From assembly GCA_030595925.1 (NCBI GenBank), contig JAUVLC010000001.1, positions 1,476-65,475 on the forward strand: DNA of 64,000 nt, given 5' to 3'. Below the pieces are notes generated by a model that saw nothing but the letters and a program-made list of their open reading frames with translations, did no database searches and was not told the origin of the DNA. Position 1 is the first letter of the stretch; each line of letters starts with the position of its first letter. Below, one piece after another: positions 53,890-57,527 of this stretch. The position numbers and the translations under genes are program-made. Source of the stretch: Clostridia bacterium. GTDB lineage: Bacteria > CBDUZB01 > JAGLHV01.

Positions 53890-54699
53890 CTAATTAATCT
53901 TCACCTGCATTCCTTTAATCTCTTGTATCCCACCGGCTTTACTGGTCAAATTTCCACTTGATTCAATATTTATTTCTCCGCTCTTTACTTCTAAAGCTGA
54001 ACCTACTTCATATTTCATATTGCTATCTGCTTTATTTTCTATATTTTTAGCTTTACTTTTTATTCCGGCATCCGAAGTTATTTTCATTTCTTTTGTTGAC
54101 TTTATTTCCATTGTCTCTCCGGCTACAAGATTTGTTGTCTTTGAAGATTTCACCTGAAAATCAGTACATTCTACACTCACTTTGCCATTTAGGGCTTTGA
54201 GATTAATATTTCCCTCTCCATTTATAATATCAATCACATTATCCTCAACATTTGCTCCTGTCTTTATCTCAATTCTATTTTTACCGGTTTTATCAATAAT
54301 TTGAATTTTTTCTTTGCCTTCGGTATCATCAAGAATGATTAAATGTCCACTCTTTGATTTGATATAACGCAAGTTATTCTTTCCATCTTTATTAACCTCG
54401 CTTGCTGTATTCTCTTTAGTCTCAGGAGGTTTTTGTTCAGAAGTCCAGATACTACCAATAATAAAAGGCTCATTTTTATTGCCCTGATGAAAAGCTACCA
54501 ATACCTTGTCATGCACATTAGGAATAAAATACGCACCCATTTCCGAACCCGCCATAAAGGTACTGACCTGTGCCCAATTACTATTGTGTTGCTCGGATAA
54601 AGAATCAAACTTCACCTTTACCCTTGAAGAATCTTTTTCAATCTCCACCACTTCACCAACCTCGACTCCATAAATTTTATTATTAGTTATGTTATCCAT
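53890..54699 (-). CDS. gp5/gpV-like baseplate spike protein (OB-fold + beta-helix), copy 2
   Basis: N-terminus YGVEVGEVVEIEKDSSRVKVKF...WAQVSTFMAGSEMGAYFIPNVHDKVLVAFHQGNKNEPFIIGSIW is the Phage_base_V/gp5 OB-fold signature; paralog of 56106..57527. Confidence 0.75.
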   Translation of the reverse strand: MDNITNNKIYGVEVGEVVEIEKDSSRVKVKFDSLSEQHNSNWAQVSTFMAGSEMGAYFIPNVHDKVLVAFHQGNKNEPFIIGSIWTSEQKPPETKENTASEVNKDGKNNLRYIKSKSGHLIILDDTEGKEKIQIIDKTGKNRIEIKTGANVEDNVIDIINGEGNINLKALNGKVSVECTDFQVKSSKTTNLVAGETMEIKSTKEMKITSDAGIKSKAKNIENKADSNMKYEVGSALEVKSGEINIESSGNLTSKAGGIQEIKGMQVKIN

Positions 54700-54839
54700 A
54701 ATTTTGTCTCCTTAAGAGCATAGAGCTAAGAGCGTAGAGCTTAGAGCAAAATATGATTCACGATACAGGATGCACGATTCACGATAGAAACTTCAAATTA
54801 AGCGTAGGAGTGGGCTTGCCCACCCTTATTTGCTCAAAA

Positions 54840-55205
54840 TTAACGAAACAATCGCCATAGAAAGCATCCCAGCTCTCTCCCTGGAAAAATGGGTAATCCA
54901 AACACAAACATTAGAATAATTAATTGTGAAAAAATTAAAAAAGAGAGACAAATCCATATATATACCCGTTGGCACAATTTAGATTTAAACCTGAAAGTCT
55001 GCGTCAAAAAATATATCCCTATTGCAAAAAGTATAAAGGGAATAGCAATTCTAAATTTCGTATCTAATTCTAAGAGGTTAAAATCCATTTCCATCTGCGT
55101 ATATATGTTTATCCTCTCATAATAAGAATCAGCAATTACAAAAGGTATTATTATACTTAAAAAGCAAAAACCGATAATAAATTTTCTATAATTCACTTTC
55201 ATCAT
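54840..55205 (-). CDS. small polytopic membrane protein (candidate immunity protein)
   Basis: 121 aa with 3-4 predicted TM helices; overlaps the upstream gene by 4 nt; sits between the two spike genes. Confidence 0.4.
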   Translation of the reverse strand: MMKVNYRKFIIGFCFLSIIIPFVIADSYYERINIYTQMEMDFNLLELDTKFRIAIPFILFAIGIYFLTQTFRFKSKLCQRVYIWICLSFLIFSQLIILMFVFGLPIFPGRELGCFLWRLFR

Positions 55206-56026
55206 TCTGACACAAACCTTTCTATTTTACCTCTCTTAATCCCAAAAAACCCGTATTGATCGGGCACCATTCTCACCTTTAATTTCTCATTTTTTATTTT
55301 GTCTAAATTTTTTCCAGAACGTGCCTTATATTCCTTCCATTTCTTCCCCTCATTGTGTGAATATTCAAATTTCATATATGTCGTACAAGCATATACTGTA
55401 ACTTTAAATTCATTCGCAAATATCTGTGCAAAACTTTCTTCCATTACTTCATCTCTTTCTCTCCTATGTCTATCTCCAAGATTACACACAAAAAAATGTA
55501 CTGTTGCTTTTTTATCAAAATGCCGCGTTATCATGTTTTTCTTATCCTCAGGAAGTTGTGTCACATGACCAATAGTGAAGTATCTATCATGGATACAAAA
55601 ATTAAATGTTTCATCTGTACGTTCTACCCTTGGTTTTGGTAACCAAAGTACTTTCTTATCATAGATAGTATACAATTTCTCTCTTATACCTTCACCACAT
55701 TTCCCATGCCAATTAGTATTAAATTCCTTTGACCAACCATGTCCATATATATAAAGTTCTTTTATCTTTTCAAAGGACTTTTCCCTTTTTTTCAATAATA
55801 CTTCTAAAACCTGATATGTATTTTCTATTTTTTTACATTCTATTTTATAATTTGGAAATTCTTTCTTTTTTTCTATCTTTGTTGTCAACGCAGCCACATC
55901 AAAAGGGGCTGGCTTCTTACTATGGTCACTACAATGAAATATAATTATTTCTCCTTTCTTAACTACAACTTTACTCTTCTTATTTTTCTCTATTGAGTCT
56001 CCCATAAATTTCTCCCTTTGCGTCAT
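55202..56026 (-). CDS. hypothetical protein (candidate spike-associated effector)
   Basis: 274 aa with no confident domain (HCSDHS / YIYGHGWS motifs); its position between spike paralogs and upstream of the membrane protein suggests an effector/immunity pair. Confidence 0.4.
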   Translation of the reverse strand: MTQREKFMGDSIEKNKKSKVVVKKGEIIIFHCSDHSKKPAPFDVAALTTKIEKKKEFPNYKIECKKIENTYQVLEVLLKKREKSFEKIKELYIYGHGWSKEFNTNWHGKCGEGIREKLYTIYDKKVLWLPKPRVERTDETFNFCIHDRYFTIGHVTQLPEDKKNMITRHFDKKATVHFFVCNLGDRHRRERDEVMEESFAQIFANEFKVTVYACTTYMKFEYSHNEGKKWKEYKARSGKNLDKIKNEKLKVRMVPDQYGFFGIKRGKIERFVSE

Positions 56027-56105
56027 ACAAATTGTAGTTGCCTGATTTATCAGGCTAAAAAATATTAACGATAAAGCTCAATAAATTAAGCAACTACGAT
56101 AAAGT

Positions 56106-57527
56106 TTAATCAGGAAATTCTACTTCCCATTTTTTAGCAGGCGGTAAATTGCTAACCTTAGCAAAACCTTTCTCATTAAGTTGCCCTTCTACTCTTTTCC
56201 CATCCGAAGAAACCAAGACAAACTTTTCATTAGCCAAAGGATTATCTTCTTCATCAACACACTCTAATTCAATCCAATCCTTAAACTCCACTATCCCTGA
56301 TTTTGATTCTTTATCTTCTATCTTTACCTTAAAATAATATTCGGGTTTGGTATATCCTTTTTCTTTCTGTTCTTTGTCACTATCTACATCATCAATGTCT
56401 TCATGATATTCATATTTCCATTTCGCTTCTACCCTGTTTTCTTTAACATTACCTAATAAAGTAGTAATGTAGTCATCTTCTCCTTTTGTATCTTTCTCAT
56501 ATATCTTAAAAGTAACTTGTGTGCCATCAGGAAAACTTTTTGTTGAACAAGACAATGTTATCTCATCTCCGCATCGTGCCTTGCTCTTTGACCACCGGGC
56601 ACTACTAATAAATTTCGTTTCTTCCTTTTCCTCACGAGCTTCTTCCTTTTGACCTGTAACCGCCACAGCCGCAGCAGCAGTAACGGCCATTGGTGCCATA
56701 GGCGATCCACCCATACCTATCTGCACCTGTGTTCCTTTTACCTCTTGAATCCTTGCGGCAATTCTTTTTAAACCTCCACCTGATTCCATCTGCACCTGTC
56801 CACCTTTTAACTCTACATTAGCTCCACCTTGCGAGAGCATATTAACATCTGCCTTATTTTCTATTCTATTTCCTTTCACCTTTAAATTTTCATTGGAAAT
56901 AATGGTCATATCTTTTGTTGCTTTTAACTCTAATGTACCTTCAGACTGGATATTTATTGATTTTGATGCGCTGATACAAAATTCTTTGCACTCAATAGTT
57001 ACTTTTCCCTTAAGTGCTTTAATATTTATATTTCCCTCATTGGTAATAAAATTAGTCTGGTTCTCTTTTGCTTCTTTATTATTATTTATCTCTATTCTAT
57101 TATTAACAGTTTTATCAATTATTTGTATTTTTTCTTTATCTTTAGTATCATCCATAATCAATAAATGTCCACTTGCAGATTTTATATAACGCAAATTATT
57201 CTTTGCATCTTTGTTGCGATCAGATTCTTGATTTTCTTCTGTCGTCGGTGGTCTTCTTTCTTCCGTCCAGATACTCTTAATCACAAAAGGGCTATTTACA
57301 TCCCCTTGATGAAACATTACTAAAACTTTATCATAAATGCAAGGCATAAAATAAGTTCCCATACCAGAACCAGCCAAAGGAATAACTACCGGTGCCCAAT
57401 TACTCACACAATTATCTCCCCAAGCAGAAAATAGCACCTTTACTCTTGCTCCTCCTTTTTCCAGCTCCACTACCTCTCCTATTTCCACCCCAAATATTCT
57501 CTTTTTTTGACAAGGTCCGTAATCCAT
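56106..57527 (-). CDS. gp5/gpV-like baseplate spike protein with a ~190-aa C-terminal extension, copy 1
   Basis: N-terminus IFGVEIGEVVELEKGGARVKVLF...WAPVVIPLAGSGMGTYFMPCIYDKVLVMFHQGDVNSPFVIKSIW; beta-helix region; C-terminal extension ends with a beta-sandwich module shared with the PAAR and LysM proteins; start refined to MDYGPCQ (RBS GAGG). Confidence 0.75.
   Translation of the reverse strand: MDYGPCQKKRIFGVEIGEVVELEKGGARVKVLFSAWGDNCVSNWAPVVIPLAGSGMGTYFMPCIYDKVLVMFHQGDVNSPFVIKSIWTEERRPPTTEENQESDRNKDAKNNLRYIKSASGHLLIMDDTKDKEKIQIIDKTVNNRIEINNNKEAKENQTNFITNEGNINIKALKGKVTIECKEFCISASKSINIQSEGTLELKATKDMTIISNENLKVKGNRIENKADVNMLSQGGANVELKGGQVQMESGGGLKRIAARIQEVKGTQVQIGMGGSPMAPMAVTAAAAVAVTGQKEEAREEKEETKFISSARWSKSKARCGDEITLSCSTKSFPDGTQVTFKIYEKDTKGEDDYITTLLGNVKENRVEAKWKYEYHEDIDDVDSDKEQKEKGYTKPEYYFKVKIEDKESKSGIVEFKDWIELECVDEEDNPLANEKFVLVSSDGKRVEGQLNEKGFAKVSNLPPAKKWEVEFPD

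Follow-up and report, generated by a model that had tools for sequence, protein, structure and literature searches.

What is the role of two small genes that stand between duplicated spike genes of a contractile injection system? The question is raised by positions 53890-57527 of a 64,000-nucleotide (nt) stretch of DNA from a Clostridia bacterium (GenBank assembly GCA_030595925.1, contig JAUVLC010000001.1, positions 1,476 to 65,475 of the forward strand), hereafter called the window. A first-pass annotation had described there two paralogous gp5/gpV-like spike genes flanking the genes of a hypothetical protein and of a small membrane protein, and had proposed an effector-immunity pair. All four open reading frames (ORFs) are indeed found where it had placed them, on the minus strand, and the spikes are paralogs. 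At a probability of roughly 0.55, we favour the reading that payloads are exchanged here, in a slot within a chromosomal extracellular contractile injection system (eCIS) of the AlgoCIS-like kind, where a cassette has brought in a spike tail, a protease-like payload and a membrane protein. The features on which this reading rests are the following (aa, amino acids; bp, base pairs; Ig, immunoglobulin; TTR, transthyretin; CPD, cysteine protease domain).

56106-57527, minus strand: spike 1, 473 aa, gp5/gpV-like
56707-57527, minus strand: spike 1 core, OB domain and beta-helix, residues 1 to about 273
54686-56706, minus strand: cassette of 2,021 bp, an insertion relative to the related contig L009, joined in frame at spike-1 residue ~273
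56106-56706, minus strand: C-terminal extension of spike 1, a flexible linker followed by an Ig-like and prealbumin/TTR-like beta-sandwich; the first part of the cassette
55202-56005, minus strand: 267-aa putative clan CD (caspase, C80 CPD or DUF4347-like) cysteine protease, candidate payload
54840-55205, minus strand: 121-aa protein with three hydrophobic segments, candidate immunity or accessory protein
53890-54699, minus strand: spike 2, 269 aa, plain gp5/gpV-like, ending at the beta-helix tip

A cassette is joined in frame to one of two paralogous spikes

The two spikes are 53% identical over 247 aa (E = 4e-90), which is far past chance, and both match the Pfam family Phage_base_V (E = 4.3e-15 for spike 1 and 1.6e-18 for spike 2). 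Spike 1 starts at ATG 57527, with GAGGA ahead of it. The extension of about 190 aa that had been noticed on one spike exists, and its length is revised here to about 200 aa past the shared region; the other spike ends at the beta-helix tip, as had been said. Beyond the shared region, spike 1 continues with an Ala/Val-rich, charged linker of ~35-40 aa and then with a conserved domain of ~167 aa.

Related contigs were reached through cluster look-ups, and two of them, L009 (from a cold-seep metagenome of the South China Sea; PMC9357000) and L012, define the limits of the insertion. In blastn, L009 aligns with the window over 57642-56707 (89%) and resumes at 54685-53774. Its two spikes, of 271 and 266 aa, lie 28 bp apart with nothing in the gap. 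The spike 1 core shares 89% DNA identity with the 271-aa spike, and the homology stops at 56707; this ortholog ends with the beta-helix and has no tail. Spike 2 shows 89% DNA identity to the 266-aa spike of L009 and 93% to spike B of L012. The contig L012 keeps the same eCIS gene order as the window, with spike-1 homology lost at 56677 and regained at 54711. Its gap holds a different spike tail of 100 aa, with only a TTR-like module, and then three genes unrelated to those of the window.

L012 slot, first gene: PG_binding_1 protein of 227 aa
L012 slot, second gene: 444-aa protein
L012 slot, third gene: 363-aa protein with a signal-like N-terminus, its gene overlapping the 444-aa gene

By eye, the 444-aa protein looked NlpC/P60-like (FDCADLI...HTTAIY); this assignment found no support in Pfam or the PDB.

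From the breakpoints in L009 and L012 (56707/56677 and 54685/54711), it follows that the 2,021 bp at 54686-56706 behave as one in-frame cassette, present in the window, absent from L009 and replaced in L012. The earlier proposal that duplicated spikes mark a site where payloads diversify is thus borne out, with the gap empty in one relative and filled with other genes and another spike-1 tail in the other. The base composition of the cassette (33.3% GC, against 33.5% for the window) gives no sign of foreign origin. Scanning genome contigs with spike 2 returned a distant Kofleriaceae spike (41%) as the sole match.

A second variable slot lies 3' of the PAAR gene. The window has there a 577-aa LysM/TTR protein, and L012 (18638-20022) has a Tae4 amidase (297 aa; Pfam E = 1.8e-18) followed by a 152-aa gene. 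The locus recalls the vgrG islands of type VI secretion systems (T6SS), with their several VgrG paralogs and pairs such as Tae4-Tai4: the spikes are duplicated, their C-termini diverge, and variable genes follow directly 3'. In L012, a close relative of the window locus, a Tae4 gene followed by a small gene stands after PAAR. The machines differ in that the one in the window is an eCIS-type particle, whereas the T6SS is membrane-anchored.

The spike-1 tail resembles extensions of T6SS spike complexes

Spike 1 consists of an OB domain and a beta-helix, followed by an extra folded domain that is homologous to an extension of T6SS PAAR proteins. Over the last ~170 aa, spike 1 is 35% identical to a T6SS-island protein of 289 aa that is free-standing, in the C-terminal part of the latter (E = 1e-38), and 32-34% identical to the C-termini of PAAR proteins of such islands (E ~1e-31). 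The last ~55 aa are prealbumin/TTR-like, with 25.1 bits to Pfam SpaA (cut-off 23.1) and a CnaB-type PDB profile match at E = 0.0047. The first part of the tail weakly resembles the extension of a Bacteroides fragilis T6SS PAAR protein (8gra_J, profile E = 0.032) and, also weakly, the N-terminal end of Tae4 from L012 (hhalign probability 61%).

VgrG and PAAR proteins are known to recruit T6SS effectors through tails of the TTR type. The spike-1 tail shares with these effector-recruiting extensions its TTR-like end and its homology to a PAAR C-terminal domain, the extended PAAR of B. fragilis (PDB 8GRA) being a further case. It differs from them in its carrier, a short gpV/gp5-like eCIS needle and not a PAAR protein.

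Scanning metagenomes with a profile of the tail, we confirmed at least 97 loci, of which 79 (L015-L093) were kept and scored with hidden Markov models (HMMs) built for this analysis. A PAAR protein fused to the tail domain was present in 24 of the 79 loci, and in 12 of those 24 a VgrG ORF lay just upstream within the fetched flank. A protein of ~300 aa with the tail domain occurred in ~65 of the 79, usually with a DcrB/DUF1795 gene ahead, which we take to be Eag-chaperone-like. The genes 3' of this ~300-aa protein are mixed; they include genes with PLD, Ntox44, SLT, Metallophos or amidohydrolase domains and core genes of the T6SS. A tail domain fused to a needle was found in none of the 79 loci. 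On this evidence, the tail of spike 1 is a generic module by which T6SS spike complexes are extended.

The Ig-like and TTR-like domain of ~170 aa has no Pfam model and is widespread in T6SS loci, at PAAR C-termini and in the ~300-aa protein. The TTR-like repeats of the 577-aa LysM protein in the second slot also resemble the tail of spike 1.

The 267-aa protein belongs to a small family with a predicted caspase-like fold

The hypothetical protein had been given as 274 aa, encoded at 55202..56026. The ORF is real, but we move its start to ATG 56005, with AGGGAG 5 nt upstream, which gives a protein of 267 aa, identical to the database entry P0001. The frame stays open over 800 nt in DNA of 31% GC, was independently called on a Logan contig, and has relatives elsewhere. 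At the curated thresholds of Pfam, NCBIfam, PHROGs and PADLOC, the description of the protein as lacking a known domain is confirmed.

A word-indexed homolog search with the protein returned only itself. An exhaustive phmmer search gave the relative P0004 (E = 5.6e-5); two of the four matches, P0002 and P0003, were repetitive junk and were discarded. Profile searches among 5.8 billion proteins closed on a family of 13 members, the window protein and 12 relatives. A profile built from the 12 relatives only, and hence not circular, scored the window ORF at 69.3 bits and matched no other ORF of the window. His89, Trp91, Cys174 and Gly177 are invariant in 13 of 13 aligned members, and the conserved motifs read ELYIYGHGW and FFVCNLG.

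The model of one relative, P0014, computed from the family alignment, reached a predicted local distance difference test (pLDDT) score of 87. In this model, the conserved His and Cys each end a hydrophobic beta-strand (85-95 and 160-171, strands of the adjacent type), in the order His then Cys that clan CD shows. The model matches the folds of caspase, legumain, CHAT and Tce1 (DUF4347; PDB 9qpe), which points to clan CD; its top Foldseek match is the MALT1 paracaspase, which combines a caspase and an Ig domain as the two-domain relatives do. At the sequence level, sub-threshold DUF4347 matches cover the Cys region in 8 of the 13 members (best E = 6e-4; 12.6 bits against a cut-off of 24.6 in one example), and DUF4347 is the only recurring Pfam family. 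Searching PDB sequences and profiles with the family gave no match. The family thus shares with the C80 domains of TcdA/TcdB and MARTX and with the clan CD peptidases (caspases, legumain, gingipain, CHAT) a His-then-Cys order with each residue at the C-terminal end of a hydrophobic strand, whereas it has no sequence-level match to Peptidase_C80, Peptidase_C14, CHAT or any PDB sequence.

The nearest functional parallels are Tce1 (PA0256) and Tce2 (PA2372), putative cysteine-protease effectors of the Pseudomonas aeruginosa H3-T6SS with a TcdB-like catalytic pair (PMC13323088). They have in common with the window protein a caspase/CPD-like alpha/beta fold (for the window family, by model), the His-then-Cys pair and, as we infer for the window protein, delivery by a contractile injection system. 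They differ in loading, as Tce1 and Tce2 load inside Hcp rings and the window gene adjoins an eCIS spike gene.

The protein is no part of the baseplate: its family is tiny, occurs in T6SS vgrG/PAAR islands, and has a caspase-like fold with invariant His and Cys. A role as an effector is reasonably supported; protease activity and toxicity are predicted.

Relatives of the 267-aa protein lie at the ends of vgrG islands

Wherever the DNA allowed the context to be checked, the genes related to that of the 267-aa protein close off T6SS vgrG islands. The layout runs VgrG, PAAR, PG_binding_1, further genes, DcrB/DUF1795, a protein of ~290-300 aa, a lipoprotein of 247-260 aa, a protein of ~126 aa and the relative itself, of ~397 aa. 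The island L008 is an exception, in which the lipoprotein gene comes after the relative and overlaps its 3' end. Seven contexts were examined; P0004, the eighth, has no DNA and stands outside this count. A gene with the tail domain lies just upstream of the relative in six of the seven; the corresponding place in the seventh is taken by a 294-aa gene, with no DNA to check its domain. The protease-like family is a rare gene that follows a tail-module gene wherever the neighbouring DNA can be checked.

The conserved, Cys-rich lipoprotein (lipobox LAAC or AVSC; L002 8857-9600, L008 3244-4026 and equivalents) always accompanies the ~397-aa relatives. It is a candidate periplasmic immunity protein, and if it is one, the ~397-aa relatives would act in the periplasm.

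This repeated context bears on the origin of the two middle genes. We consider it very improbable that they are chance passengers without any functional link, caught in a recombination-prone gap between duplicated genes. Tandem 7-bp repeats throughout the intergenic regions could promote rearrangement, and an unrelated NHL gene of the cargo type of a type IX secretion system (T9SS; 51716-53698) is likewise inserted just 3' of spike 2, specifically in the window as compared with L009 and L012. Yet the cassette is inserted in frame with the spike and brings a domain that otherwise sits on T6SS PAAR proteins. Relatives of the 267-aa protein, moreover, occur in vgrG/PAAR islands wherever this can be checked, directly 3' of a gene with the same domain, which is unlikely to come about by chance. 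A cassette fused in frame and a family that keeps recurring beside spike genes therefore speak against passengers.

The same context bears on another function for the 267-aa protein, namely a processing or maturation protease of the machine, which would cut the spike-1 linker, so as to free or mature the tail, or the DUF4157 cargo of the lumen, in the fashion of C80 domains that process their own toxins. Self-processing is the presumed role of C80 CPDs and of many DUF4347 domains, and spike 1 has a flexible linker of ~35-40 aa just ahead of its tail. TcdB is the protein with which Tce1 and Tce2 were compared (PMC13323088), and in AlgoCIS the Alg7 linker is cleaved (PMC8894135). We nevertheless hold this role to be improbable. 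The gene is specific to the cassette, so the machines of L009 and L012 assemble without it, and the relatives sit at that end of the T6SS vgrG islands which varies and carries effectors, beside the gene of an immunity-like lipoprotein.

The membrane protein is a candidate immunity or accessory protein

The 121-aa protein had been credited with three or four transmembrane helices. A Kyte-Doolittle scan over 19 residues finds three hydrophobic segments (~8-27, 51-70 and 81-107), and the fourth is dropped. The overlap of its gene with that of the 267-aa protein is confirmed: the small gene follows immediately downstream and is coupled to it through a 4-nt overlap (ATGA) at the stop. The protein has no match above threshold in Pfam, NCBIfam, PHROGs or PADLOC, and its gene is missing from L009 and L012. 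Given its translational coupling and its place in the same cassette, it is a candidate for an immunity role on positional grounds. The ~126-aa gene beside the T6SS relatives was compared as a possible counterpart and shows no resemblance. A core holin was also considered and set aside: the gene is missing from L009 and L012, it does not lie beside the PG_binding_1 gene (48606-49445), and the C-terminal tail of the protein is short.

The contig L012 speaks to immunity from another side. Its Tae4 gene with a small gene behind it, and the overlap of its 444-aa gene with one that encodes a signal-like N-terminus, suggest that effector-immunity logic operates in this lineage.

An alternative, which we rate as possible and clearly less probable than the favoured reading, is that the protease-like protein is a payload for non-bacterial targets, as has been proposed for Tce2, and needs no immunity, the 121-aa protein being an unrelated accessory or passenger that may, for instance, anchor something in the membrane, help release or act like a holin. 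The eCIS have mostly been described as acting on eukaryotic cells. A multi-pass membrane protein would be an odd inhibitor of a soluble protease, and its size of 121 aa and three-segment topology fit class I holins, with a hydrolase-like PG_binding_1 gene at 48606-49445. No immunity genes lie near those of Tce1 and Tce2; neither protein harms E. coli, whereas yeast is poisoned by Tce2, an effect that depends on its Cys (PMC13323088). On the other side, the small gene is translationally coupled to the protease-like gene within one cassette. Its absence from L009 and L012 argues against a core release function, and L012 carries an antibacterial-type amidase, Tae4, with a small gene, and the overlapping 444-aa/363-aa pair.

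A payload-exchange slot is the favoured explanation

In the favoured explanation, the payload-exchange slot, the needle is encoded in the P2/T4 style, apart from a gpD-like hub, and is duplicated into a plain spike 2 and a spike 1 that would bear cargo. A cassette joined in frame at the end of the beta-helix brings the linker with its Ig/TTR module, the 267-aa putative enzyme and the membrane protein. Particles made with spike 1 would carry the protease-like protein, either docked on the beta-sandwich tail or loaded nearby; once inside its target cell, the protein would work as a cysteine protease. The membrane protein that is co-translated with it may shield the producer or its sister cells. 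The protein is strongly basic (57 Lys and Arg against 39 Asp and Glu), and the tube lumen of AlgoCIS is negatively charged (PMC8894135). The 267-aa protein would also suit such a lumen, and both tail docking and lumen loading are therefore possible routes.

Several results weigh against this explanation. As to the fold, the modelled relative is 24% identical to the window protein, whose own single-sequence AlphaFold2 model has a pLDDT of 39.5. The window protein has no match to DUF4347, C80, C14 or CHAT at E ≤ 10, and it lacks the C-terminal beta-sandwich that is present in the T6SS relatives. As to docking, the protease-like family lies downstream of the tail domain in only 2 of the 79 metagenome loci, a co-occurrence that weakens the idea of the tail as a dedicated adaptor for this family. 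As to immunity, the 90% cluster of the 121-aa protein holds one other member only, a near-identical fragment, and a search of the 79 loci found no homolog. What accompanies the T6SS relatives is the unrelated 247-260-aa lipoprotein and not a partner of this kind, and the behaviour of Tce1 and Tce2 described above counts on the same side.

A wider proposal, which we offer only tentatively, is that T6SS and eCIS share one portable loading kit. In it, an Ig/TTR module would sit on a PAAR tip in T6SS islands of the proteobacterial type and on a duplicated gpV-like needle in the window, and would receive interchangeable payloads, including the 13-member caspase-like family. The eCIS lineage of the window would then be a spike-tip loader with anti-bacterial effector-immunity cassettes, as the Tae4 of L012 hints, whereas for other eCIS the known route is loading of the lumen and the known targets are eukaryotic cells.

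Spike-linked cargo cassettes are a known theme. New here are an eCIS with a split and duplicated needle, the caspase-like family, and the unmodelled extension domain of PAAR and spike proteins. Engineered eCIS are being developed as tools for protein delivery, and their payload rules are known mainly for cargo inside the tube. If the favoured explanation is true, natural eCIS that swap payloads through in-frame spike tails and adjoining cassettes would offer a second modular loading route. The analysis defines a very small, unannotated caspase-like family tied to injection-system spikes, which extends the recently described Tce-type cysteine protease effectors, and a widespread beta-sandwich extension domain of T6SS PAAR proteins has been identified.

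The surrounding locus encodes an eCIS with a split and duplicated needle

The window is AT-rich (~33% GC), and almost every gene lies on the minus strand. The eCIS locus is formed by minus-strand genes from past 64000 down to ~29700, after which housekeeping genes follow. Besides the slot, its features are these.

61003-62631, minus strand: eCIS_core/DUF4157 protein, upstream of the tube initiator
60128-60916, minus strand: second eCIS_core/DUF4157 protein, upstream of the tube initiator
59348-59998, minus strand: CIS_tube and LysM protein, the tube initiator
57928-58986, minus strand: gpD/gp27-like baseplate hub, the N-terminal half of a split VgrG (Pfam Phage_GPD and YQBQ; NCBIfam VgrG_rel positions 5-348, E = 6e-55)
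51716-53698, minus strand: NHL protein with a T9SS sorting domain, inside the eCIS operon
49989-51518, minus strand: PorV-like outer-membrane protein, inside the eCIS operon
48606-49445, minus strand: PG_binding_1 protein, hydrolase-like
Minus-strand run between the PG_binding_1 and PAAR genes: gp25, Baseplate_J, then fibre-like proteins
41967-42497, minus strand: PAAR tip protein, 176 aa, with a small TTR-like tail (PAAR_motif E = 6.4e-21)
40222-41955, minus strand: 577-aa LysM protein with two TTR-like repeats, in the second variable slot 3' of PAAR
Minus-strand end of the eCIS locus, before the housekeeping genes: Tail_P2_I, VWA and AAA ATPase

The locus thus holds a core set of eCIS genes, with two eCIS_core proteins, CIS_tube with LysM, gpD, gp25, Baseplate_J, Tail_P2_I, PAAR and an AAA ATPase. 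Genes for the sheath and for the main tube are expected past 64000, outside the window. It shares with AlgoCIS of Algoriphagus machipongonensis (PMC8894135) and with the Afp and PVC eCIS the two DUF4157 proteins, the LysM tube initiator, gp25, baseplate J, the PAAR-like tip and the AAA ATPase. Those systems have one fused gp27-gp5 spike (Alg8, Afp8, Pvc8), whereas the window has separate hub and needle genes and a duplicated needle, with a cargo slot between the copies. In the NCBIfam model VgrG_rel, the hub covers positions 5-348 and both spikes cover ~373-540, the C-terminal half. The model is therefore divided between them, and a VgrG-type spike has been split into hub and needle genes, with the needle duplicated.

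The hub ortholog of L012 (349 aa) aligns with 58992-57894 of the window at 93%. In the window, the hub gene likely starts at ATG 58986, because the longer ORF from TTG (to 59049) runs through 7-bp repeats. The PAAR protein of the window is 38-41% identical to that of the T6SS island L002, and this sole PAAR gene of the window probably serves both spikes. Both DUF4157/eCIS_core genes are positioned like those of the AlgoCIS lumen cargos Cgo1 and Cgo2 (PMC8894135), and the locus may hold lumen cargo besides its spike-linked cargo.

The 577-aa LysM protein contains an internal direct repeat of 393 bp (41092-41875) and has a weak NPP1 match (E = 0.004). The PorV-like gene keeps the same position in L009 and L012. 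The T9SS sorting domain of the NHL protein, its last ~91 aa, recurs with 74% identity at the C-terminus of a 204-aa ORF (35754-36368) that lies 16 kb off in the same locus. In L012, a gene for a 23S rRNA intervening-sequence protein (4828-5226; PF05635, E = 6e-37) lies between the hub and spike A, where the window has repeat-filled DNA.

Nearly all intergenic regions of window 24000-64000 carry 7-bp repeats in tandem. They fall into two families, of which TATCCTG/ATCCTGT reaches 61.6 copies and AGAGCTA/AGCTAAG reaches 43.9, and the two often stand next to each other upstream of genes. Examples are at 38695-39127, 36777-36947, 25390-25696, 26519-26950, 59987-60130, 54713-54785 and 57755-57795, and the repeats recur at matching positions in L009 and L012. 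They are reminiscent of the short tandemly repeated repetitive (STRR) heptamers of cyanobacteria; the organism of the window, however, has T9SS genes, which suggest the FCB group. The repeats also give rise to ORFs that are not real and to wrong N-termini; the TTG start at 59049 is one case. A scan for promoters and terminators returned sites that were not more numerous than in shuffled sequence.

Two fibre-like paralogs, at 42723-43661 and 34771-35616, are 45% identical over ~300 aa, and the first has a CTHRC1_C domain. Their similarity suggests that the pair may provide two alternative receptor-binding fibres.

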